Shown: positions 1-11,433 of the stretch, piece after piece
Numbering within the stretch: position 1 is the stretch's first letter
Layout: the number at the start of each line of letters is the position of its first letter
From: a virus
Taxonomy: Duplodnaviria; Heunggongvirae; Uroviricota; Caudoviricetes
Length of the DNA: 11,433 nt
IMG/VR virus record: IMGVR_UViG_2695420421_000008
Direction: 5' to 3' (one strand)
Notes under the pieces: model-generated
Seen by the model: the letters and a program-made list of their open reading frames with translations, nothing else
Databases searched by the model: none
Told to the model about the DNA's origin: nothing
Made by a program: the position numbers and the translations under genes

Positions 1-515
1 AGGGGAGTGGTTTTGAACTGAATGGCAAAGGCACCAGTACGCGCCCCACGCTGATGGTTTCTAACCTGTACGGTATGGTCACCGGGATGGCGGAAGATCT
101 ACAGAGTCTGGTCGGCGGAACGGTGGTCCGGCGTAAGGTTTACGCCCGTTTTCTGGATGCGGTGAACTTCGTCAACGGAAACAGTGACGCCGATCCGGAG
201 CAGGAGGTGATCAGCCGCTGGCGCATTGAGCAGTGCAGCGAACTGAGCGCGGTGAGTGCCTCTTTTGTACTGTCCACGCCGACGGAAACAGATGGCGCTG
301 TTTTTCCGGGACGTATCATGCTGGCCAACACCTGCACCTGGACCTATCGCGGCGATGAGTGCGGTTATCACGGTCCGGCGGTCGCGGATGAATATGACCA
401 GCCAACGTCCGACATCACGAAGGATAAATGCAGCAAATGCCTGAGTGGCTGTAAGTTTCGCAATAACGTCGGCAACTTTGGCGGCTTCCTTTCCATTAAC
501 AAACTTTCGCAGTAA
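1..515 (+). CDS. L: Minor tail protein L, C-terminal ~171 codons (5'-partial; gene begins upstream of window)
   Basis: Open frame runs from position 3 to TAA at 513-515. Translation (GSGFELNGKGTSTRPTLMVSNLYGMVTGMAEDLQSL...CSKCLSGCKFRNNVGNFGGFLSINKLSQ) matches my recollection of the lambda gpL C-terminus, including the Cys-rich segment. Position immediately upstream of K fits lambda gene order. Confidence 0.85.
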   Translation, partial: GSGFELNGKGTSTRPTLMVSNLYGMVTGMAEDLQSLVGGTVVRRKVYARFLDAVNFVNGNSDADPEQEVISRWRIEQCSELSAVSASFVLSTPTETDGAVFPGRIMLANTCTWTYRGDECGYHGPAVADEYDQPTSDITKDKCSKCLSGCKFRNNVGNFGGFLSINKLSQ

Positions 516-520
516 ATCCC

Positions 521-1264
521 ATGACAGAGACAGAATCAGCGATTCTGGCGCACGCCCGGCGATGTGCTCCAGCGGAGTCGTGCGGCTTCGTGGTAAGAAC
601 GCCGGAGGGGGAAAGATATTTCCCCTGCGTGAATATCTCCGGTGAGCCGGAGGCGTATTTCCGTATGTCGCCGGAAGACTGGCTGCAGGCAGAGATGCAG
701 GGTGAGATTGTGGCACTGGTCCACAGCCACCCCGGTGGTCTGCCCTGGCTGAGTGAGGCCGACCGGCGGCTGCAGGTGCAGAGTGATTTGCCGTGGTGGC
801 TGGTCTGCCGGGGGGCGATTCACAAGTTCCGCTGTGTGCCACATCTTACCGGGCGGCGCTTTGAGCACGGGGTGACGGACTGTTACACGCTGTTCCGGGA
901 TGCTTACCATCTGGCGGGGATTGAGATGCCGGATTTTCATCGTGAGGATGACTGGTGGCGTCACGGTCAGAATCTCTATCTGGATAATCTGGAGGCCACA
1001 GGGCTGTATCAGGTGCCGTTGTCAGCGGCGCAGCCGGGCGATGTGCTGCTGTGCTGTTTTGGTTCATCGGTGCCGAATCATGCCGCCATTTACTGTGGTG
1101 ACGGCGAGCTGCTGCACCATATTCCTGAACAACTGAGCAAACGAGAGAGGTATACCGACAAATGGCAGCGACGCACACACTCCCTCTGGCGTCACCGGGC
1201 ATGGCACGCATCTGCCTTTACGGGGATTTGCAACGATTTGGCCGCCGCATCGACCTTCGTGTGA
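521..1264 (+). CDS. K: Tail tip assembly protein K: N-terminal MPN/JAB (JAMM) domain plus C-terminal NlpC/P60 peptidase-like domain
   Basis: 247-aa ORF starting 5 nt after the L stop. It has a JAMM-type motif HSHPGGLPWLSEAD (HxH-x7-S-x2-D) with an upstream Glu (PAESCGF), and a downstream Cys/His region (GVTDCYTLF...NHAAIY) typical of NlpC/P60. Its 3' end overlaps I by 103 nt, as in lambda K/I. An internal ATG at 665 would give the 199-aa product of the classical lambda annotation. Confidence 0.85.
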   Translation: MTETESAILAHARRCAPAESCGFVVRTPEGERYFPCVNISGEPEAYFRMSPEDWLQAEMQGEIVALVHSHPGGLPWLSEADRRLQVQSDLPWWLVCRGAIHKFRCVPHLTGRRFEHGVTDCYTLFRDAYHLAGIEMPDFHREDDWWRHGQNLYLDNLEATGLYQVPLSAAQPGDVLLCCFGSSVPNHAAIYCGDGELLHHIPEQLSKRERYTDKWQRRTHSLWRHRAWHASAFTGICNDLAAASTFV

Positions 1265-1833
1265 AAACGGGTGCCGAAGCCATCCGGGCGATGGCCACAC
1301 AGCTCCCTGCGTTTCGTCAGAAGCTGAGCGACGGCTGGTATCAGGTGCGTATTGCCGGGCAGGATGTTAGCACGTCCGGATTAACGGCGCAGTTACATGA
1401 GGCTCTGCCTGACGGCGCTGTGATTCATATTGTTCCCAGAGTCGCCGGGGCCAAGTCAGGTGGTGTATTCCAGATTGTCCTGGGAGCAGCCGCCATTGCC
1501 GGATCATTCTTTACCGCCGGAGCCACCCTTGCAGCATGGGGGGCTGCCATTGGTGCCGGTGGTATGACCGGCATTCTGTTTTCTCTCGGTGCCAGTATGG
1601 TGCTCGGCGGTGTGGCTCAGATGCTGGCACCGAAAGCCAGAACTCCCCGCACACAGACAACGGATAACGGTAAGCAGAACATCTATTTCTCCTCACTGGA
1701 TAACATGGTTGCCCAGGGCAATGTTATGCCTGTTCTGTATGGTGAAATGCGCGTGGGGTCACGTGTGGTATCTCAGGAGATCAGCACGGCAGACGAAGGG
1801 GACGGTGGTCAGGTTGTGGTGATTGGTCGCTGA
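1162..1833 (+). CDS. I: Tail tip assembly protein I
   Basis: 223-aa ORF, the same length as lambda gpI as I recall it. N-terminus MAATHTLPLASPGMARICLYGDLQRFGRRIDLRV and the Gly/Ala-rich hydrophobic C-terminal half are characteristic. Overlaps the K 3' end in another frame. Confidence 0.85.
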   Translation: MAATHTLPLASPGMARICLYGDLQRFGRRIDLRVKTGAEAIRAMATQLPAFRQKLSDGWYQVRIAGQDVSTSGLTAQLHEALPDGAVIHIVPRVAGAKSGGVFQIVLGAAAIAGSFFTAGATLAAWGAAIGAGGMTGILFSLGASMVLGGVAQMLAPKARTPRTQTTDNGKQNIYFSSLDNMVAQGNVMPVLYGEMRVGSRVVSQEISTADEGDGGQVVVIGR

Positions 1834-1852
1834 TGCAAAATATTTTATGTGA

Positions 1853-1872
1853 AACCGCCTCCGGGCGGTTTT
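1853..1872 (+). promoter_or_regulatory. Small GC hairpin in the I-J intergenic spacer (stem aaccgcc / ggcggtt, loop tccg, followed by tt)
   Basis: Read directly from sequence at 1853-1870, about 25 nt upstream of the J RBS (ggag at 1882-1885). Function unknown; could be an RNA processing or stability element or a weak attenuator. Confidence 0.25.
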
Positions 1873-1893
1873 ATCGTTTATGGAGCATGACGA

Positions 1894-4800
1894 ATGGGTA
1901 AAGGCAGCAGTAAGGGGCATACCCCGCGCGAAGCGAAGGACAACCTGAAGTCCACGCAGCTGCTGAGTGTGATCGATGCCATCAGCGAAGGGCCGGTTGA
2001 AGGTCCGGTGGATGGATTAAAAAGCGTGCTGCTGAACAGTACGCCGGTGCTGGACAGTGAGGGGAATACCAACATCTCCGGCGTCACGGTGGTGTTCCGG
2101 GCAGGTGAGCAGGAGCAGTCACCGCCGGAGGGATTTGAATCCTCCGGCTCCGAGACGGTGCTGGGTACGGAAGTGAAATATGACACGCCGATCACCCGGA
2201 CCATCACGTCGGCAAACATTGACCGACTGCGTTTTACCTTCGGTGTACAGGCACTGGTGGAAACCACCTCAAAGGGAGACAGGAATCCGTCTGAAGTTCG
2301 CCTGCTGGTTCAGATACAGCGTAACGGTGGCTGGGTGACGGAAAAAGACATCACCATTAAGGGCAAAACCACCTCGCAGTATCTGGCCTCGGTGGTGGTG
2401 GGTAACCTGCCGCCGCGCCCGTTTAATATCCGGATGCGCAGGATGACGCCGGACAGCACCACAGACCAGCTGCAGAACAAAACGCTCTGGTCGTCATACA
2501 CCGAAATCATCGATGTGAAACAGTGCTACCCGAACACGGCACTGGTCGGCGTGCAGGTGGACTCGGAGCAGTTCGGCAGCCAGCAGGTGAGCCGTAATTA
2601 TCATCTTCGCGGGCGCATTCTGCAGGTGCCGTCGAACTATAATCCGCAGACGCGGCAATACAGCGGTATCTGGGACGGAACGTTAAAACCGGCATACAGC
2701 AACAACATGGCCTGGTGTCTGTGGGATATGCTGACCCATCCGCGCTATGGCATGGGGAAACGTCTTGGTGCGGCAGATGTGGATAAATGGGCGCTGTATG
2801 TCATCGGCCAGTACTGTGACCAGTCGGTGCCGGACGGCTTTGGCAGCACGGAGCCGCGCATCACCTGTAATGCCTGGCTGACCACACAGCGCAAGGCGTG
2901 GGATGTGCTCAGTGATTTCTGCTCGGCGATGCGCTGTATGCCGGTATGGAACGGGCAGACGCTGACGTTCGTGCAGGACCGACCGTCGGATAAGGTGTGG
3001 ACCTATAACCGCAGTAATGTGGTGATGCCGGATGATGGCGCGCCGTTCCGCTACAGTTTCAGCGCCCTGAAAGACCGCCATAATGCCGTTGAGGTGAACT
3101 GGATTGACCCGGATAACGGCTGGGAGACGGCGACAGAGCTTGTGGAGGATACGCAGGCCATTGTCCGTTACGGTCGTAACGTCACGAAGATGGATGCCTT
3201 TGGCTGTACCAGCCGGGGGCAGGCACACCGCGCCGGGCTGTGGCTGATTAAAACGGAACTGCTGGAGACGCAGACCGTGGATTTCAGCGTGGGTGCTGAA
3301 GGGCTTCGTCATGTACCGGGCGATGTCATTGAAATCTGCGATGATGACTATGCCGGTATCCGCACCGGCGGGCGCGTGCTGGCGGTGAACAGCCAGACGC
3401 GGACACTGACGCTCGACCGTGAAATCACGCTGCCAGCCTCCGGCACCACGCTGATAAGCCTGGTTGACGGGCAGGGGAATCCGGTCAGCGTGGAGGTCCA
3501 GTCCGTCACCGACGGCGTGAAGGTAAAAGTGAGCCGTGTTCCTGACGGTGTTGCTGAATACAGCGTGTGGGGGCTGAAGCTGCCGACGCTGCACCAGCGA
3601 TTGTTCCGCTGCGTGAGTATCCGTGAGAACGACGACGGCACGTATGCCATCACTGCCGTGCAGCATGTGCCGGAGAAAGAGGCCATCGTGGATAACGGGG
3701 CGCACTTTGACGGTGACCAGAGCGGCACGGTGAATGGTGTCACGCCGCCAGCAGTGCAGCATCTGACCGCCGAAGTCACTGCAGACAGCGGGGAATATCA
3801 GGTGCTGGCGCGATGGGACACGCCGAAGGTGGTGAAGGGTGTGAGCTTTATGCTTCGCCTGACTGTGGCAGCAGACGACGGCAGTGAGCGGCTGGTCAGC
3901 ACGGCCCGGACGACGGAAACCACATACCGCTTCACGCAACTGGCGCTGGGAAACTACAGGCTGACAGTCCGGGCGGCAAATGCCTGGGGGCAGCAGGGCG
4001 ATCCGGCATCGGTATCGTTCCGGATTGCCGCACCGGCAGCACCGTCGCGGATTGAGCTGACGCCGGGCTATTTTCAGATAACCGCAACGCCGCATCTTGC
4101 CGTTTATGATCCGACGGTACAGTTTGAGTTCTGGTTCTCGGAAAAGCGGATTGCGGATATCAGGCAGGTTGAAACCACAGCCCGCTATCTTGGCACGGCG
4201 CTGTACTGGATAGCCGCCAGTATCAATATCAAACCGGGCCATGATTATTATTTTTATATCCGCAGTGTGAACACTGTTGGCAAATCGGCATTTGTGGAGG
4301 CTGTCGGTCGGGCGAGCGATGATGCGGAAGGTTACCTGGATTTTTTCAAAGGCCAGATAACCGAATCCCATCTCGGCAAGGAGCTGCTGGAAAAAGTCGA
4401 GCTGACGGAGGATAACGCCAGCAAACTGGAGGAGTTTTCGAAAGAGTGGAAAGACGCCAACGATAAATGGAATGCCATGTGGGGCGTCAAAATTGAGCAG
4501 ACCAAAGACGGCAAACATTATGTCGCGGGTATTGGCCTCAGCATGGAGGACACGGAGGAAGGCAAGCTGAGCCAGTTTCTGGTTGCCGCTAACCGTATCG
4601 CGTTTATTGACCCGGCAAACGGGAATGAAACGCCGATGTTTGTGGCGCAGGGCAACCAGATATTCATGAACGACGTGTTCCTGAAGCGCCTGACGGCCCC
4701 CACCATTACCAGCGGTGGCAGTCCTCCGGTATTTTCCCTGACATCAGACGGAAAGCTGACCGCTAAAAATGCGGATATCAGTGGCAGTGTGAATGCGAAC

Positions 4801-5307
4801 TCAGGAACGCTCAACAATGTCACGATTAACCAGAACTGTACGATTAAGGGCATGCTGGAGGCGACCCAGGTCAGAGGGGATTTCGTTAAAGCTGTATCAA
4901 AAGCCTTCCCGAAAAAAGTCGGTACGTGGGGTAACACGGAAACACCAAACGGTACGGTTACAGTCACCATCAGCGATGATCATAACTTTGACCGCCAGAT
5001 TATTATTCCGCCCATTATTTTTAACGGTATAGCGTATGACGATCCGGGGAGCGGAAATAACCCAGGAGGCACGCGATACACGGGTTATGGTTTTGAAGTT
5101 CGCAAAAACGGCGTATTAATCGCATCCAGAGAAACTAAAGGGGCCATTCCCGGTAGTTACAGTGCAGTTATTGATATGCCTAGTGGTGGTGGTAGCGTCA
5201 CTCTGGAGTTTAAGATTTTCCAGAAAGGCAATCAGGGGGCAGGCAATATCACCGACTGTACGGTGATTGTGACCAAAAAAGCTGCTTCCGGCATCAGTAT
5301 TCGTTGA
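1894..5307 (+). CDS. J: Host specificity protein J (central tail fibre / tail tip, receptor-binding C-terminus)
   Basis: 1137-aa ORF with RBS ggag 8 nt upstream. Size and position after I match lambda gpJ (about 1132 aa). The internal sequence ...[48 protein letters not shown]... matches lambda J as I recall it. The extreme C-terminus appears to differ from lambda's. Confidence 0.9.
3706..5041 (+). repeat. Segment of J that is directly repeated, in diverged form, at 10018..11433
   Basis: Direct comparison of the two stretches by eye: conserved blocks flank a substituted middle cassette. Confidence 0.8.
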
Positions 5308-5328
5308 AATATTTATAACCCCAATAAA

Positions 5329-5354
5329 GGGCGTCAGGAATGACGCCTTTTTTA
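5329..5354 (+). terminator. Rho-independent terminator downstream of J
   Basis: Stem ggcgtca (5330-5336), loop ggaa, stem tgacgcc (5341-5347), followed by a run of six T (5348-5353). Confidence 0.6.
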
Positions 5355-5377
5355 TTGCAGAAAAGCGAGAGGTAATT

Positions 5378-5977
5378 ATGCGTAAAGTTTGTGCAGCAAT
5401 TTTGTCCGCAGCCATTTGTCTGGCCGTATCCGGTGCGCCTGCATGGGCGTCTGAACATCAGTCCACGCTGAGCACGGGGTATCTTCATGCCTCGACGAAC
5501 GTTCCCGGCAGTGATGATCTGAACGGGATTAACGTGAAATACCGTTATGAGTTTACGGACACGCTGGGAATGGTTACGTCATTCAGCTATGCAGGAGACA
5601 AGAATCGCCAGCTTACCCGTTACAGCGATACCCGCTGGCATGAAGATTCCGTTCGTAACCGCTGGTTCAGCGTAATGGCGGGGCCGTCTGTGCGCGTGAA
5701 TGAATGGTTCAGCACGTATGCGATGGCGGGTGTGGCTTACAGCCGTGTGTCGACTTTCTCCGGGGATTATCTTCGCGTAACTGACAACAAGGGGAAAACG
5801 CACGATGTGCTGACCGGAAGTGATGACGGTCGCCACAGCAACACGTCTCTGGCGTGGGGAGCTGGCGTGCAGTTTAACCCGACCGAATCCGTGGCCATTG
5901 ATATTGCTTATGAAGGCTCCGGCAGTGGCGACTGGCGCACTGACGGTTTCATCGTGGGTGTCGGTTATAAATTCTGA
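5378..5977 (+). CDS. lom: Lom outer-membrane protein (Ail/Lom/PagC family beta-barrel; lysogenic-conversion moron)
   Basis: 199-aa ORF with RBS gagagg (5367-5372). N-terminal signal peptide [24 protein letters not shown]. Alternating aromatic/hydrophobic beta-strand pattern and C-terminal [10 protein letters not shown] typical of Ail/Lom barrels. Located between J and stf as in lambda. Confidence 0.9.
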
Positions 5978-6003
5978 TTAGCCAGGTAACACAGTGTTAT
6001 GAC

Positions 6004-6031
6004 AGCCCGCCGGTTCAGGCGGGCTTTTTTG
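6004..6031 (+). terminator. Rho-independent terminator downstream of lom
   Basis: Perfect 8-bp stem agcccgcc (6004-6011) / ggcgggct (6018-6025), loop ggttca, followed by tttttt. Confidence 0.7.
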
Positions 6032-6041
6032 TGGGGTGAAT

Positions 6042-8981
6042 ATGGCAGTAAAGATTTCAGGTGTACTGAAAGATGGCACAGGAAAACCGGTACAGAACTG
6101 CACAATCCAGCTGAAAGCAAAACGTAACAGCACCACGGTGGTGGTGAACACGCTGGCCTCAGAAAATCCGGATGAAGCCGGGCGTTACAGCATGGACGTT
6201 GAGTACGGTCAGTACAGCGTTATTCTGTTGGTGGAAGGATTCCCGCCGTCACATGCCGGGACCATCACCGTGTATGAAGATTCTCAACCCGGTACGCTGA
6301 ATGATTTTCTCGGTGCCATGACGGAGGATGATGCCCGTCCGGAGGCACTGCGCCGTTTTGAACTGATGGTGGAAGAGGTGGCGCGTAACGCGTCCGCGGT
6401 GGCACAGAACACGGCAGCCGCGAAGAAGTCAGCCAGTGATGCCAGCACATCAGCCCGTGAGGCGGCAACCCATGCGGCTGATGCTGCGGACTCAGCACGC
6501 GCAGCCAGCACGTCAGCCGGACAGGCCGCGTCGTCGGCTCAGTCAGCGTCTTCCAGCGCAGGAACGGCATCAACAAAGGCCACTGAAGCCTCAAAAAGTG
6601 CTGCCGCTGCAGAGTCCTCAAAAAGCGCGGCGGCCACCAGTGCCGGTGCGGCGAAAACGTCAGAAACGAATGCGGCAGCGTCAGAACAATCAGCCGCCAC
6701 TTCTGCATCCACCGCGACCACGAAAGCGTCAGAAGCAGCCACTTCAGCACGGGATGCGTCGGCTTCAAAAGAGGCGGCAAAATCATCAGAAACGAGCGCA
6801 GCCTCGAGCGCCAGTAGTGCAGCCTCCTCGGCAACAGCGGCAGGAAATTCCGCGAAGGCGGCAAAAACGTCCGAGACGAACGCCAGGTCTTCTGAGACGG
6901 CAGCGGGACAGAGCGCCTCAGCTGCGGCAGGCTCAAAAACAGCGGCTGCGTCGTCTGCCAGTGCCGCGTCAACAAGTGCCGGGCAGGCCTCAGTCAGTGC
7001 CACCGCAGCCGGAAAATCGGCAGAAAGCGCCGCATCATCCGCTTCAACAGCCACAACGAAGGCTGGCGAAGCCGCTGAACAGGCCAGCGCAGCAGCGAGG
7101 TCTGCATCCGCAGCGATGACATCCGAAACGAACGCGAAAGCCTCGGAAACCAGTGCAGAATCCTCAAAAATGGCAGCTGCATCGTCCGCCAGTTCGGCGG
7201 CGTCATCGGCATCATCTGCGTCTGCTTCAAAAGATGAGGCGAGCAGACAGGCATCAGCAGCGAAAGGCAGCGCCACGACGGCATCCACGAAGGCGACAGA
7301 GGCTGCTGGCAGTGCGACAGCGGCAGCACAGAGCAAAAGTACAGCAGAATCCGCGGCAACGCGCGCCGAGACAGCGGCAAAACGGGCAGAGGATATTGCA
7401 TCCGCCGTGGCGCTTGAGGATGCGAGCACGACGAAAAAGGGGATAGTACAGCTAAGCAGTGCGACTAACAGCACTTCCGAGTCACTGGCGGCAACGCCAA
7501 AGGCAGTAAAAGCAGCCAATGACAATGCTGAGAAACGTCTGCAGAAAGATCAGAACGGTGCGGATATCCCTGGCAAAGACACCTTTACGAAAAATATTGG
7601 TGCCTGCCGTGCCTTCGGTGGGTCAGTAAGCACAACAACAGGAAACTGGACGACTGCACAGTTTATCGAGTGGCTGGATTCTCAGGGAGCATTTAACCAT
7701 CCATACTGGATGTGCAAGGGTTCCTGGTCTTATGGCAATAATAAAATCATTACTGATACTGGCTGCGGTAATATTCATCTCGCAGGAGCTGTCATTGAAG
7801 TAATGGGGATAAAGTCAGCGATGACGATCCGCATTACCACACCGACCACCTCCACTGGTGGCGGAACAACTAACGCCCAGTTTACCTATATTAATCACGG
7901 AACAGATTATTCACCTGGCTGGCGAAGGGACTATAACTCCAGAAATAAGCCAACGGCATCAGAGATCGGGGCGTTACCGTCAGGTGGAACAGCAGTATCA
8001 TCAGTTAATCTGGCTTCAAAAGGTCGGGTAACCGCGCTGACAGACAATACGCAGGGGGCAACAGGTCTTGAGTTATACGAGGTGTATAACAACGGATATC
8101 CAACAGCGTATGGAAATATCATTCACCTGAAAGGGATGACAGCCGTTGGCGAAGGTGAGTTACTCATCGGCTGGAGTGGTACAAGCGGTGCTCATGCTCC
8201 GGCATTTATTCGTTCACGACGGGATACGACCGACGCAAACTGGTCGCCGTGGGCGCAGCTTTACACCTCAGCTCATCCTCCTGCAGAGTTTTATCCAGTC
8301 GGTGCACCAATCCCGTGGCCATCAGATACCGTTCCGTCTGGTTATGCCCTGATGCAGGGGCAGACTTTTGACAAATCTGCATACCCGAAACTTGCAGCGG
8401 CTTATCCGTCAGGCGTTATTCCTGATATGCGTGGCTGGACGATTAAGGGCAAGCCCGCCAGTGGTCGTGCCGTATTGTCTCAGGAACAGGACGGCATTAA
8501 ATCGCACACCCACAGCGCCAGCGCATCCAGTACGGATTTGGGGACGAAAACCACATCGTCGTTTGATTACGGCACTAAATCTACGAATAACACTGGTGCG
8601 CATACCCATAGTTTAAGTGGCAGCACGAATGCAGCTGGTAATCACAGCCATAGAGATGGCCGTCGATTTAACCCCAGTGTTTTTAAAGATACTTATCAAT
8701 ATGGTTATACAAGCTCAGGTCAAAATACCTGGGGTGTACAAGGCTCAGTAGGTATGTCTACGGGGTGGTTAGCTAATACCAGTACAGATGGTAATCATAG
8801 CCACTCACTGTCCGGCACAGCAGCGTCTGCAGGTGCACACGCACATACTGTCGGTATTGGTGCACACACGCACTCCGTTGCGATTGGTTCACATGGACAC
8901 ACCATCACCGTTAACGCTGCGGGTAACGCGGAAAACACCGTCAAAAACATCGCATTTAACTATATTGTGAGGCTTGCATAA
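6042..8981 (+). CDS. stf: Side tail fibre protein Stf: conserved N-terminal anchor, long Ala/Ser-rich repetitive shaft, His-x-His-rich C-terminal tip domain
   Basis: The ORF track starts at GTG 6036; ATG at 6042 ([26 protein letters not shown]...) matches the lambda Stf N-terminus as I recall it. The C-terminal region carries repeated HxH motifs (SHTHS, AHTHS, NHSHR, NHSHS, AHAHT, AHTHS, SHGHT) and ends ...[11 protein letters not shown]. The stop overlaps the tfa start (TAATG). Confidence 0.85.
6384..7420 (+). repeat. Low-complexity Ala/Ser/Thr-rich internal repeat region within stf (recurring ...AAKTSETNA.../...[12 protein letters not shown]... units)
   Basis: About 345 codons dominated by A, S, T, E and K with recurring approximate units; the DNA motif gcggcaaaaacgtc(a/c)ga(a/g)acgaa(t/c)gc recurs near 6650 and 6860, and a related tccgaaacgaacgc near 7120. 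It generates long spurious ORFs in other frames. Confidence 0.6.
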
Positions 8982-9389
8982 TGGCATTCAGAATGAGTGA
9001 ACAACCACGGACTATAAAAATTTATAATCTGCTGGCCGGAACTAATGAATTTATTGGTGAAGGTGACGCATATATTCCGCCTCATACCGGTCTGCCTGCA
9101 GACAGTACCGATATTGCACCGCCAGATATTCCGGCTGGCTTTGTGGCTGTTTTCAACAGTGATGAGGCATCGTGGCATCTCGTTGAAGATCATCGGGGTA
9201 AAACGGTTTATGACGTGGCATCAGGGGACGCGTTATTTATTTCTGAACTCGGTCCGTTACCGGAAAATGTCACCTGGTTATCCCCGGAAGGGGAATATCA
9301 GAAGTGGAACGGTACAGCCTGGGTGAAAGATGCAGAAGCAGAAAAACTATTCCGGATCCGGGAGGCGGAAGAAACAAAAAACAGCCTGA
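8936..9389. repeat. Left arm of a 454-bp inverted repeat (stf last 14 codons + tfa codons 1-136)
   Basis: Reverse-complement identity with 9574..10027 checked by eye at both ends and at an internal stretch (9001-9060 vs 9903-9962). Translations of three ORF pairs across the arms are identical (tfa N-terminus, 93-aa and 77-aa alternate-frame ORFs), implying essentially 100% DNA identity. Symmetry centre is between 9481 and 9482. Confidence 0.9.
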
Positions 9390-9442
9390 ATGCAGGGGAT
9401 ATTGATTTATGGTTGACTTGGCCACTCGATATCTGGAGATAG
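8981..9442 (+). CDS. tfa: Tail fibre assembly protein, truncated or chimeric copy: first 136 codons identical to the minus-strand copy, then a 17-aa unrelated tail
   Basis: Start overlaps the stf stop, with gtgagg RBS upstream. The N-terminal 136 aa ([24 protein letters not shown]...EAEETKNSL) are identical to ORF 9407..9982(-). After the repeat boundary at 9389 the frame reads [17 protein letters not shown], which lacks the conserved Tfa C-terminus. Confidence 0.6.
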
Positions 9443-9982
9443 TGATGTATCAACACGGTTCAGCAACACCCGATACTTTTTCCAAGCTTCCAGCAACGAG
9501 GTTTCTTCCTCTGTTGCGATTTCCAGATCTACAGCATCCTGAAGCGGCGCAATATGCTCACTGGCTACCTGCATCAGGCTGTTTTTTGTTTCTTCCGCCT
9601 CCCGGATCCGGAATAGTTTTTCTGCTTCTGCATCTTTCACCCAGGCTGTACCGTTCCACTTCTGATATTCCCCTTCCGGGGATAACCAGGTGACATTTTC
9701 CGGTAACGGACCGAGTTCAGAAATAAATAACGCGTCCCCTGATGCCACGTCATAAACCGTTTTACCCCGATGATCTTCAACGAGATGCCACGATGCCTCA
9801 TCACTGTTGAAAACAGCCACAAAGCCAGCCGGAATATCTGGCGGTGCAATATCGGTACTGTCTGCAGGCAGACCGGTATGAGGCGGAATATATGCGTCAC
9901 CTTCACCAATAAATTCATTAGTTCCGGCCAGCAGATTATAAATTTTTATAGTCCGTGGTTGTTCACTCATTCTGAATGCCAT
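9407..9982 (-). CDS. tfa: Tail fibre assembly protein, full-length copy with canonical Tfa C-terminus
   Basis: 191 aa, close to the lambda Tfa length as I recall it. C-terminus ...[34 protein letters not shown] resembles the lambda Tfa C-terminal region. It is preceded on the minus strand only by the last 14 codons of a stf-like gene (9983..10027). Confidence 0.75.
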
Positions 9983-10027
9983 TATGCAAGCCTCACAATA
10001 TAGTTAAATGCGATGTTTTTGACGGTG
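9574..10027. repeat. Right arm of the 454-bp inverted repeat (inverted tfa codons 1-136 + inverted stf last 14 codons)
   Basis: Same as the left arm. Identity ends at 8935/10028 on the outside and 9390/9573 on the inside. Confidence 0.9.
9983..10027 (-). pseudogene. Orphan 3' end of a stf-like gene (last 14 codons, ...[14 protein letters not shown]) on the minus strand, upstream of the minus-strand tfa
   Basis: Part of the inverted-repeat right arm. No further stf coding sequence follows on the minus strand, because the sequence switches to J homology at 10018..10028. Confidence 0.6.
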
Positions 10028-11433
10028 ACCAGAGCGGCACGGTGAATGGTGTCACGCCGCCAGCAGTGCAGCATCTGACCGCCGAAGTCACTGCAGACAG
10101 CGGGGAATATCAGGTGCTGGCGCGATGGGACACGCCGAAGGTGGTGAAGGGCGTGAGCTTCCTGCTCCGTCTGACCGTAACAGCGGATGACGGCAGTGAG
10201 CGGCTGGTCAGCACGGCCCGGACGACGGAAACCACTTACCGCTTCACACAACTGGCGCTGGGGAACTACAGGCTGACAGTCCGGGCAGTAAATGCGTGGG
10301 GGCAGCAGGGCGATCCGGCGTCGGTATCGTTCCGGATTGCCGCACCGGCAGCGCTGTCGCGGATTGAGCTGACGCCGGGCTATTTTCAGATAACCGCCAC
10401 GCCGCATCTTGCGGTTTATGATCCGACGGTACAGTTTGAGTTCTGGTTCTCGGAAAAGCGGATTGCGGATATCAGGCAGGTTGAAACCACAGCCCGCTAT
10501 CTTGGCACGGCGCTGTACTGGATAGCCGCCAGTATCAATATCAAACCGGGCCATGATTATTACTTTTATATCCGCAGTGTGAACACCGTTGGCAAATCGG
10601 CATTCGTGGAGGCTGTTGGTCAGCCGAGTGATGATGCATCCGGTTATCTGGATTTTTTCAAAGGCGAGATAGGGAAAACCCATCTGGCTCAGGAGCTGTG
10701 GACGCAGATTGATAACGGTCAGCTTGCGCCTGACCTGGCTGAAATCAGGACGTCCATTACGGATGTCAGCAATGAAATCACGCAGACCGTCAATAAGAAA
10801 CTGGAAGACCAGAGTGCGGCAATTCAGCAGATACAGAAGGTTCAGGTTGATACAAATAATAACCTGAACAGCATGTGGGCTGTGAAGCTGCAGCAGATGC
10901 AGGACGGACGCCTTTATATCGCGGGTATTGGTGCCGGTATTGAGAACACCCCTGACGGCATGCAGAGTCAGGTGCTGCTGGCGGCGGACAGGATTGCGAT
11001 GGTTAATCCTGCGAATGGCAACACAAAACCGATGTTTGTTGGTCAGGGCGATCAGATATTCATGAACGACGTGTTCCTGAAACGCCTGACGGCCCCCACC
11101 ATTACCAGCGGTGGAAATCCATCGGCATTTTCCCTGACTCCGGACGGAAAGCTGACCGCTAAAAATGCGGATATCAGTGGCAGTGTGAATGCGAACGCCG
11201 GGACGCTCAACAATGTCACGGTAAATGAAAACTGTACGATTAAGGGCATGCTGGAGGCGACTCAGGTCAGAGGTGACTTCGTTAAAGCTGTATCCAAATC
11301 ATTTCCGAAACAGGCTGGTACGTGGGGTAACACGGAAACACCAAACGGGACGGTTACAGTCACCATAAGCGATGATCATAACTTTGACCGCCAGATTATT
11401 ATTCCGCCCATTATTTTTAACGGTATAGCGTAT
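10018..11433 (+). pseudogene. 5'-truncated second copy of host specificity protein J (homologous to J codons ~605 onward), running off the 3' end of the window
   Basis: In-frame homology to J 3706..5041. Roughly 85-93% nt identity in the flanking blocks on spot checks (10018-10650 vs 3706-4340; 11060-11433 vs 4665-5041). A divergent central cassette is about 400 nt here versus about 310 nt in J. It lacks the first ~604 codons of J. The only in-frame ATG upstream is at 9976, inside the repeat, with no obvious RBS. Confidence 0.6.

Follow-up and report, generated by a model that had tools for sequence, protein, structure and literature searches.

A second, internal J fragment in a Shigella sonnei draft contig probably owes its position downstream of J to assembly

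The window analysed here (11,433 nt) is the whole of CXFA01000187.1, a contig of the draft Shigella sonnei assembly GCA_001257695.1, and is very probably a chimeric scaffold in which the position of a second J fragment (J2) downstream of the complete J gene (J1) is an assembly artefact. The original prediction had placed a direct repeat of part of J 6.3 kb downstream of that gene, but the intervening stretch contains an N at position 9390 and a join made over a 10-nt overlap, and linkage of the two copies is not established. J2 itself is real DNA of an ordinary J allele, most likely from a second lambdoid element. An apparent tandem spare J cassette would suggest a device for switching host range, and here it rests on a gap and a minimum-overlap closure in a draft assembly of short reads. 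The source record is annotated in the style 'Uncharacterised protein' and is listed in 2 samples, which are possibly not independent isolates; a literature search on the assembly accession gave no hits.

The tail module and the complete J gene

The first piece of the scaffold carries, on the plus strand, tail genes in the order L-K-I-J-lom-stf-tfa. The left contig end cuts the tail-tip gene L, of which the 3' part remains (1–515; PF05100, Phage_tail_L) and is collinear with the phage-plasmid contigs L012 and L017. It is followed by the tail-tip genes K (521–1264) and I (1261–1833), identified by the Pfam families Prok-JAB/NLPC_P60 and Lambda_tail_I. J1 (1894–5307; 1137 aa), which carries the short-cassette allele, encodes a full tip attachment protein with the complete Pfam domain series (FNIII-A_GpJ, Phage-tail_3, Ig_J, Ig_J_second, Phage_Tail_Tip and Ig_GpJ_C). 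It has the N-terminal tail-tip hub domains, its own start and the expected place after gene I, and its protein record, CST28145.1, reads host specificity protein J of Shigella sonnei. Downstream lie lom (5378–5977; Ail/Lom outer-membrane protein, PF06316) and the side tail fibre gene stf (6042–8981; 979 aa; PF08400 and PF07484), which has the same length as in L012 and L017 and in which a search for tandem repeats gave nothing significant.

Positions 1–9396 of the window are collinear, at 97.9% identity, with N15-like phage-plasmid relatives including L012. The same tail module is also found in integrated lambdoid prophages. Exact protein look-up of J1, the 979-aa Stf and the ORF across the second join returned CXFA01000187.1 as the sole match, and that of a 153-aa truncated Tfa and a 981-aa Stf returned no match.

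J2 is an internal fragment of an ordinary J allele

J2 (10018–11433, plus strand) runs off the right contig end and has no native start. It corresponds to lambda J residues 605 to about 1043 (aligned blocks 605–835 and 838–1043; E = 8e-221 against lambda J chains of solved structures such as 8IYK) and contains the ordered C-terminal gpJ/TipJ domains Ig_J (6–110), Ig_J_second (114–214), Phage_Tail_Tip (268–396) and Ig_GpJ_C (425–470). Since only positions 1–47 of the 135 in the Ig_GpJ_C profile are present, the contig end cutting the C-terminal receptor-binding domain, the description of the repeat as a receptor-binding region holds for this last portion, whereas the fragment is mainly Ig_J, Ig_J_second and Phage_Tail_Tip shaft. 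J2 has neither the N-terminal hub domains nor its own start, and it follows a reverse-oriented stf/tfa instead of gene I; an in-frame ATG at 9976 sits in antisense tfa and has no Shine-Dalgarno motif. The native start and the last 90 codons are missing because of the join and the contig end, respectively.

As predicted, the two J copies are similar but not identical. By blastn (E = 0, far above chance), 10018–10702 matches J 3706–4391 at 93.6% identity and 10872–11433 matches J 4476–5037 at 83.8%, and the centres between these blocks are unalignable, with 169 nt in J2 (10703–10871, the long cassette form) replacing 84 nt in J1 (4392–4475, residues about 833–861, the short form). The predicted start of the repeated J range, 3706, is thus correct; its end at 5041 is not, as the contig, and with it the match, stops at the equivalent of J 5037. 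Likewise, the central cassette differs in sequence and length as described, the protein alignment giving J2 28 extra codons; the Q/K/L-rich peptide quoted for it is present in frame 0 of 10018–11433, which is open for 472 codons, and uniform identity lacking a cassette substitution is contradicted by the unalignable centre. The diverged block exceeds the indel and extends from J1 residue ~825 to 900. Outside a J2-specific core (10152–11367), bounded by the first and last mismatch to J1, the two copies are identical over 10018–10151 (134 nt) and 11368–11433 (66 nt), and within both of these flanks the nearest relative of J2, L018, differs from it.

Both cassette forms are common. Of the 5,426 complete E. 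coli genomes, 3,550 have the long form, at a median of 2 places per genome and, where it falls within annotated gpJ genes, with identities reaching 100%, and 2,632 have the short form; more than half of these genomes have several J genes. Both forms are seen in otherwise collinear N15-like phage-plasmids as well as in chromosomal prophages, in agreement with the predicted mosaic polymorphism of J. The cassette site is the start of the fibre shaft, outside the receptor-binding domain, and the swap, a dimorphism of the base of the central tail-fibre shaft, is widespread.

The best DNA matches of J2 are full-length chromosomal gpJ genes, at 98.9% identity; the allele is at most 98–98.9% identical to any record and has no 100% protein match. 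That J2 is the standard chromosomal J of Shigella sonnei is thus unsupported, its identity to the common S. sonnei ORF being 96.8% in antisense translation. The proposed different lineage is borne out insofar as J2 is a distinct J allele, but its standing as a physical neighbour, either a prophage remnant or a host-range cassette in cis, is unsupported. In biological terms J2 is an ordinary gpJ allele with nothing distinctive.

A gap at 9390 and a second rendering of tfa

The window and the public record CXFA01000187.1 differ at one position only, 9390, which is N in the record and A in the window. Two pieces have therefore been scaffolded to make the window, with a gap between J and its copy, and the gap was invisible to the original prediction because the N had become A. 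For the same reason, a 153-aa ORF appears at 8981–9442. Up to the gap, 8981–9389 (plus strand) is tfa nt 1–409, which covers only positions 1–75 of the 131 in the Caudo_TAP profile, and in all relatives the natural tfa runs on into TGCAGGTAGCC. Beyond the gap, 9391–10027 is a reverse-complement second rendering of tfa plus the last 46 nt of stf: comparison with L006 and L008–L017 shows that 9391–9406 (minus strand) is the natural sequence 3' of tfa as far as the centre of a palindrome, and 9407–9982 (minus strand) is a complete tfa (191 aa; Caudo_TAP 1–130 of 131), the first 409 nt of which are the sequence at 8981–9389. The stretch 9385–10027 matches L012 10599–9956 at 99.7% identity, and the exact 191-aa Tfa protein is also found in N15-like phage-plasmid contigs.

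Between J and J2 there is consequently an inverted repeat of 454 nt, absent from the original prediction, with arms at 8936–9389 (plus strand; the last 46 nt of stf and tfa nt 1–409) and 9574–10027 (minus strand; including the last 46 nt of stf at 9982–10027) that are 100% identical. In the relatives, tfa is followed by a 23-nt perfect palindrome, TATCCCCTGCA-A-TGCAGGGGATA, and then by sopB; a scan for intrinsic terminators around the junctions found none, so that we call this element a palindrome only. The first piece breaks off immediately ahead of TGCAGG (tfa nt 411–416), and the same six bases open the second piece at the palindrome centre (9391–9396).

A natural convergent pair of tfa genes was considered and rejected, as all relatives run from tfa through the palindrome to sopB and the join at 9390 (junction 1) occurs in no genome. 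We also rejected a hairpin-telomere read-through of a linear phage-plasmid, since the spacer of the inverted repeat is here 184 nt long, asymmetric and inside tfa. Mirror-image assemblies were seen in two relatives, L011 and L013, and are centred beyond sopA.

The join at 10018–10027 and the right contig end

The second join (junction 2, 10018–10027) consists of TTTGACGGTG, a sequence common to the reverse complement of stf 8936–8945 and to J 3706–3715. The overlap is exactly 10 nt, with the bases differing on either side, and TTTGACGGTG is one of only two 10-mers common to the joined regions, the expected number of shared 10-mers over 900 × 500 nt being about 0.4. By default, GapFiller closes a gap as soon as the overlap between two extensions reaches 10 nt (PMC3446322). 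The contig ends exactly 66 nt past the last mismatch between J1 and J2, which fits k-1 for an odd k of 67. In the Sanger pipeline, Velvet is run with k at 66–90% of the read length, SSPACE accepts as few as 5 read pairs and GapFiller is run for 120 iterations; its authors state that the greedy steps 'can lead to false joins' (PMC5320598).

Neither join recurred in the collections searched. Junction 2 was present in none of the 5,426 complete E. coli genomes, among which all single-piece J matches begin at 10018; the annotated collection comprised no complete Shigella genomes. It was also sought in plasmids and phages and in viral, genome and metagenome contig collections, and was not found; no counterpart of junction 1 was found either. 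The ORF spanning junction 2 is on record in CXFA01000187.1 only, and its Shigella sonnei cluster-mates (519–625 aa) run on into normal J.

Origin of the arrangement

Uninterrupted sequenced DNA does not connect the J copies, which are separated by the N at 9390 and by the joining of unrelated natural sequences at 10018–10027, and the junctions did not recur in independent genomes or assemblies. The marks of a scaffolding and gap-closure chimera are all present: an N at a join, a 454-nt inverted duplication, a minimum overlap and a contig end at a branch point. A misassembly, which the original prediction had named as the outcome that would overturn it, is what this evidence favours. With linkage of J1 and J2 unsupported, the deletion of lom-stf-tfa by recombination between the copies, which had also been predicted, becomes moot.

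The most probable course of events is as follows. A pipeline of the Velvet/SSPACE/GapFiller type would have been applied to a S. sonnei isolate with at least two lambdoid tail modules; the sequence of assembly steps is our inference, and so is the use of these programs, to which the species, the style of the accession, the 10-nt overlap and the signature of k = 67 point. Piece 1 (1–9389) is the L-K-I-J-lom-stf-tfa module of the N15-like phage-plasmid type, with its short-cassette J, and a second, long-cassette J would lie elsewhere in the isolate, in another prophage, another phage-plasmid or a subpopulation. Because the sequences flanking a diverged core of 1.2 kb are the same in J2 as in J1, J2 would form a separate branch of the de Bruijn graph, and this branch would stop k-1 = 66 nt past the last difference, giving the right contig end. 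Read-pair scaffolding would then have added a small piece after piece 1, leaving one N at 9390. This small piece would hold the genuine 3' end of tfa together with an extension that leads back via tfa into stf, all placed in reverse, so that the reversed tfa would be the same gene rendered twice and not a second gene. Gap closure would finally have joined it to the extended J2 branch once the 10 nt of TTTGACGGTG were shared. Presumably at least 5 read pairs linked the pieces, so some real proximity is conceivable.

Three observations weigh against this scheme. A chance 10-nt overlap of two growing ends is rare for any one gap, a real illegitimate join could also show a 10-nt microhomology, and the 6-nt TGCAGG coincidence would suit a real fold-back event.

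It is unlikely that the arrangement is real and arose by template switching within a phage-plasmid or between a phage-plasmid and a prophage. By this route a J2-type gene would have been copied, with a jump at TTTGACGGTG to the end of stf, continuation through tfa to the palindrome and a fold-back on TGCAGG, to yield an inverted insert of 0.64 kb, flanked by a truncated tfa on one side and a J remnant lacking its 5' part on the other; the N would mean that the assembler could not read through the inverted repeat. Short homologies are indeed present at both joins (10 nt at 10018–10027, and TGCAGG at 9391–9396 and tfa nt 411–416), and junction 1 lies at the centre of the 23-nt perfect palindrome, palindromes of this sort being known fold-back sites. 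A 454-nt inverted repeat moreover exceeds short reads and is hard to assemble, and lambdoid remnants with a J fragment fused to tfa exist, for example in E. coli AW1.7. However, junction 1 is an N and has no sequence, the overlap at junction 2 exactly equals the software threshold, and a junction covered by reads would emerge from the de Bruijn graph without gap closure. Furthermore, neither junction is seen elsewhere, the Shigella sonnei proteins of the cluster included, and the J2 piece ends in the way a free branch of the graph would. That the junctions are real in the particular form of a palindrome-triggered, microhomology-mediated template switch, which truncated tfa and put a promoterless long-cassette J segment 6.3 kb downstream, we regard as quite doubtful; if they are, the 685-bp homology at 94% between the repeats could give J chimeras by recombination.

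There is also a slim chance of a variant of the assembly artefact in which the source of J2 was a mixed culture, contamination or a heterogeneous phage-plasmid population with two J alleles, and not a second element of the same cell. J2 equals J1 in the 134-nt head and the 66-nt tail, where its nearest relative differs, as expected for identical backbones, and both its identity of just 96.8%, in antisense translation, to the J found commonly in Shigella sonnei assemblies and the ceiling of 98–98.9% identity to any record point the same way. Co-resident lambdoid prophages, however, also usually have identical flanks, and over half of complete E. coli genomes have several J genes, both cassette forms being common.

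A programmed host-range cassette is extremely improbable. It would consist of a silent J segment beside an invertible tfa, exchanged by site-specific or homologous recombination as in Mu G, P1 C, e14 P or shufflon-like systems, and the inverted repeat over the stf end and tfa, followed by a directly repeated promoterless J segment, has this outline; related lambdoid phages also carry a Pin-type serine recombinase gene right after tfa. Against it, the window ORFs include no recombinase gene, and the arms are 100% identical with only 15 stf codons inside, so that inversion leaves the fibre unchanged. The closest relatives of the module have sopB and sopA, and no pin, after tfa; a search of other genomes, phages and plasmids did not turn up this architecture; and junction 1 is an N. 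The suggestion of an alternative host-range cassette in cis is unsupported, the fragment starting in mid-gene and being accompanied neither by a recombinase gene nor by a differing stf/tfa pair.

With the position of J2 best explained as an assembly artefact, the remaining biology is already known: lambdoid J genes are mosaic and come in a long and a short form that differ at the fibre-shaft base, and a tail module of the N15-like type is found in Shigella sonnei. For scans of draft assemblies, gap characters are worth keeping, and repeats abutting contig ends or Ns should be treated as unlinked pending read-level evidence.

Comparison with known systems

J2 fits the allelic mosaicism of lambda gpJ/TipJ, having the same domain order and a cassette that is one of two standard alleles. 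Piece 1 resembles the N15-like telomere phage-plasmids, which are linear and carry TelN and SopAB: in the relatives, sopB, sopA and a protelomerase gene of the TelK/TelN family lie beyond tfa, and the exact Tfa protein is shared. The scaffold breaks off within tfa, which is why sopAB, telN and a telomere site are missing from the window.

The Din-family invertible segments (Mu G, P1 C and e14 P/Pin) are similar in having convergent tfa genes flanked by inverted repeats that extend into the stf 3' end. Judged by eye, the border CCGTCAAAAACATCGC recalls only loosely a half-site of the hix/gix/cix type, the crossover sites of this family being 26 bp. A serine invertase gene (gin/cin/pin) was not found among the window ORFs, whereas other lambdoids have pin after tfa, and two different stf C-termini with cognate tfa genes are not present, the arms being identical over 454 nt, including 46 nt of stf; one of the two tfa copies is, in addition, cut by the N. 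We therefore rejected a Pin/Gin/Cin-type invertible tail-fibre segment, given the lack of an invertase gene, the identical arms and the 15 stf codons in the repeat. Fold-back or microhomology-mediated template switching has in common with the window an inverted duplication, an asymmetric spacer, a breakpoint at a palindrome centre and short homologies at both joins, but here one join is unsequenced, the other equals a software threshold and there is no independent occurrence. The false joins made by SSPACE and GapFiller after Velvet differ from the present case in that the algorithm in its described form does not account for the 6-nt TGCAGG coincidence at the N and the software is our inference; they are alike in the single N, the reversed duplicate, the 10-nt closure and the contig end at k-1.

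Gene organization

Looking up the exact J protein identified the sequence as the entire contig CXFA01000187.1 (11,433 nt, stopping at 11433) of draft assembly GCA_001257695.1; the contig is recorded in two samples, and its J protein is recorded as Shigella sonnei in the annotation style 'Uncharacterised protein'. Genes L (1–515, cut by the left window end), K (521–1264), I (1261–1833), J (1894–5307, 1137 aa; J1 hereafter), lom (5378–5977), stf (6042–8981, 979 aa) and tfa (starting at 8981) are arranged as in the lambda tail-tip operon, an order that is lost after the tfa start. The forward tfa is cut at its nt 409 and is followed by a complete tfa on the minus strand (9407–9982, 191 aa), directly beyond which lie the last 46 nt of stf, also on the minus strand, and then, on the plus strand, a reading frame resembling J (J2), which runs from 10018 off the window end.

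The middle of stf (6400–7600) has a strongly positive AT skew (0.36–0.47) and loosely repeated 24–28-nt motifs (families D3 and D4) spaced by multiples of 42 nt, suggesting that the fibre shaft contains a degenerate repeat of 14 residues; no significant tandem repeat was detected there by Tandem Repeats Finder. Two minus-strand ORFs, antisense to J1 (2683–4518, 611 aa) and to J2 (9982–10683, 233 aa), have homologues named 'Uncharacterised protein' in many assemblies of S. sonnei and E. coli, the cluster comprising 62 members of 195–625 aa. The ORFs gave no noteworthy Pfam match; both probably just shadow the GC-rich reading frame of J and are non-coding.

Similarity between the two J sequences

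Self-comparison of the window aligned 10018–10702 with 3706–4391 (93.6% identity) and 10872–11433 with 4476–5037 (83.8% identity). Between these blocks are unalignable cassettes of 169 nt in J2 (long, 10703–10871) and 84 nt in J1 (short, 4392–4475). J2 keeps a single frame open over 472 codons, including the peptide cited in the original prediction, and protein alignment gave it 28 extra residues relative to the matching part of J1, with identity lowered at J1 residues ~825–900. These three results bear out the J-like similarity as it had been described. J2 had also been called a receptor-binding region with a swapped cassette; the swapped centre is present, but J2 extends over both Ig-like domains, the Phage_Tail_Tip shaft and no more than the initial third of the C-terminal receptor-binding domain, and the cassette lies outside that domain, at residue 835/838 of lambda J, between the second of the Ig-like domains and the shaft.

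The long cassette was found (coverage of at least 80%) in 3,550 of the 5,426 complete E. coli genomes, with matches of up to 100% identity within annotated gpJ genes, and the short cassette, the form of J1 and lambda, in 2,632. Either form is carried by N15-like phage-plasmids otherwise collinear with the window (J lengths of 1131, 1137, 1159 and 1165 aa). A protein search with the J2 fragment matched J proteins in their thousands, and identity over the full fragment was 97–98% for the best of them. From these counts, occurrences and matches, the 'swapped cassette' is a well-populated dimorphism of gpJ. The similarity of J2 to J1 is real and ordinary.

All J1/J2 differences fall within 10152–11367, the first 134 nt and last 66 nt of J2 being the same as in J1. 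The closest database match to J2, a full-length chromosomal gpJ (98.9%), mismatches it in both head and tail; therefore, J2 in this isolate is embedded in sequence identical to the J1 flanks. It is when a second allele is flanked by identical sequence in this way that an assembler leaves it as an orphan branch.

The junction at 9390

Between J1 and J2 lies a perfect inverted repeat of 454 nt (8936–9389 and 9574–10027, with 184 nt between the arms), absent from the original prediction, each arm consisting of the last 46 nt of stf and tfa nt 1–409. Window 1–9396 is collinear (97.9%) with the closest relatives of this module, the phage-plasmid contigs L012 and L017, and 9385–10027 is the reverse complement of their stf end, whole tfa and 23 nt more (99.7%). 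In the relatives (L006 and L008–L017), tfa is followed by a perfect 23-nt palindrome, TATCCCCTGCA-A-TGCAGGGGATA, beyond which lie sopB, sopA and a protelomerase gene of the TelK/TelN type. Since the relatives show the natural stf-tfa-palindrome sequence, the 184-nt 'spacer' is the genuine 3' end of tfa, backwards, and a single tfa sequence is present twice, forward and cut at nt 409, and reversed and complete.

At the join, the forward tfa ends with ...CAGCCTGA and the reversed piece begins with TGCAGGGGATATTG... Position 9390 is 'N' in the public record and 'A' in the window, the sole mismatch in 11,433 bases. This junction is therefore a scaffold gap, not sequenced DNA, hidden from the original prediction because the gap character had been replaced by A. 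The 153-aa 'truncated Tfa' ORF (8981–9442) is spurious and owes its existence solely to this replacement. No sequence spanning the junction was found in the 5,426 complete E. coli genomes.

The gap coincides exactly with the centre of the palindrome, of which 9391–9406 is the part present in the window, the other half being missing. The palindrome is conserved between the convergent tfa and sopB and may serve as a terminator in both directions or as a site bound by a protein; as it lacks a T-run, it was not called in a simple scan for terminators.

The junction at 10018–10027

Here the reversed stf end joins J2. The natural reverse-complement stf reads ...GCGATGTTTTTGACGGTG|TTTTCC and the natural J reads GGGCGCAC|TTTGACGGTGACCAG; the two have exactly ten bases in common, TTTGACGGTG, with adjacent bases differing on either side. 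These regions have just two 10-mers in common, this one included, against ~0.4 expected by chance. GapFiller counts a gap as closed once the extensions overlap ('parameter n, default = at least 10 nucleotides'; PMC3446322). In one high-throughput pipeline, Velvet is run with k at 66–90% of read length, SSPACE joins contigs on as few as five read pairs with Ns left in, and GapFiller is run for 120 iterations; its authors caution that these greedy steps 'can lead to false joins' (PMC5320598). The contig ends exactly 66 nt past the last J1/J2 difference, matching a de Bruijn branch end at k = 67, an odd value that the pipeline's limits allow when reads are 75 or 100 nt long. On the basis of the species, the style of accession and annotation, and the overlap and branch-end signatures, we infer that the assembly was made by this Velvet/SSPACE/GapFiller pipeline.

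No counterpart of this junction was found in the 5,426 complete E. coli genomes (complete Shigella genomes lie outside this set), where single-piece J matches all start at the base equivalent to 10018. Neither junction was found in plasmids (PLSDB search), in phage records, or by exact scans of viral, genome and metagenome contig collections. The 233-aa ORF, which spans and is truncated by the junction at 10018–10027, is recorded in this contig only, its cluster-mates in many other S. sonnei assemblies having 519–625 aa and running on into ordinary J. An ATG at 9976, antisense to the tfa start, opens a frame (9976–10017) in phase with J2; it has no upstream Shine-Dalgarno motif, and its run into J2 arose by chance through the join and does not mark where a gene begins.

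Origin of the arrangement

The original prediction placed a direct repeat of J 6.3 kb downstream of J. The N at 9390, the minimum-overlap join at 10018–10027, the branch-end signature, the identical repeat arms and the absence of both junctions from the other collections searched are all observed and argue against such a physical repeat, and the tandem arrangement is most likely a scaffold artefact. In the order of events that we infer, an isolate with at least two lambdoid J genes would have yielded a phage-plasmid-type tail module as the first scaffold piece, a re-rendering, across the N, of that module's own tfa end in reverse orientation as the second, and, across a minimum-overlap gap closure, the orphan J2 branch as the third. 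The source of J2 could be either another element resident in the isolate or a mixed population.

A real rearrangement by template switching would account for the 10-nt homology at 10018–10027, the TGCAGG common to the natural continuation of the first piece and the start of the next, and the break at the palindrome centre, but one of its joins is unsequenced and the overlap at the other equals the software threshold, and we consider it unlikely. That the second J is a programmed host-range cassette, or part of an invertible segment, is highly improbable, since each defining feature tested came out negative.

Relationship to phage-plasmids

Mirror-image assemblies occur in two relatives, L013 (~10600–16400) and L011 (~10600–16500), one of them a metagenome scaffold of 96.7 kb and the other the record CP088562.1 of 75.5 kb: tfa, sopB and sopA are followed by sopA, sopB, tfa, stf, lom and J reversed, as if the assembler had gone round the linear plasmid's covalently closed hairpin telomere or had put together a head-to-head dimer. 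The integrated lambdoid relatives phage PhiR68_2 and E. coli LR-62-2 have a PinQ/PinR-type serine recombinase gene directly after tfa (L003, 15869–16459; L018, 13494–14084), with no obvious second stf/tfa set beside it.

The tfa-palindrome-sopB-sopA-protelomerase order of the relatives is the layout of the N15-like linear phage-plasmids. Given the collinearity of its tail module with these elements, the S. sonnei isolate may carry a telomere phage-plasmid; sop and tel genes are absent from the window. In contrast to the integrated lambdoids, the phage-plasmid relatives have sopB after tfa instead of the Pin-type recombinase.
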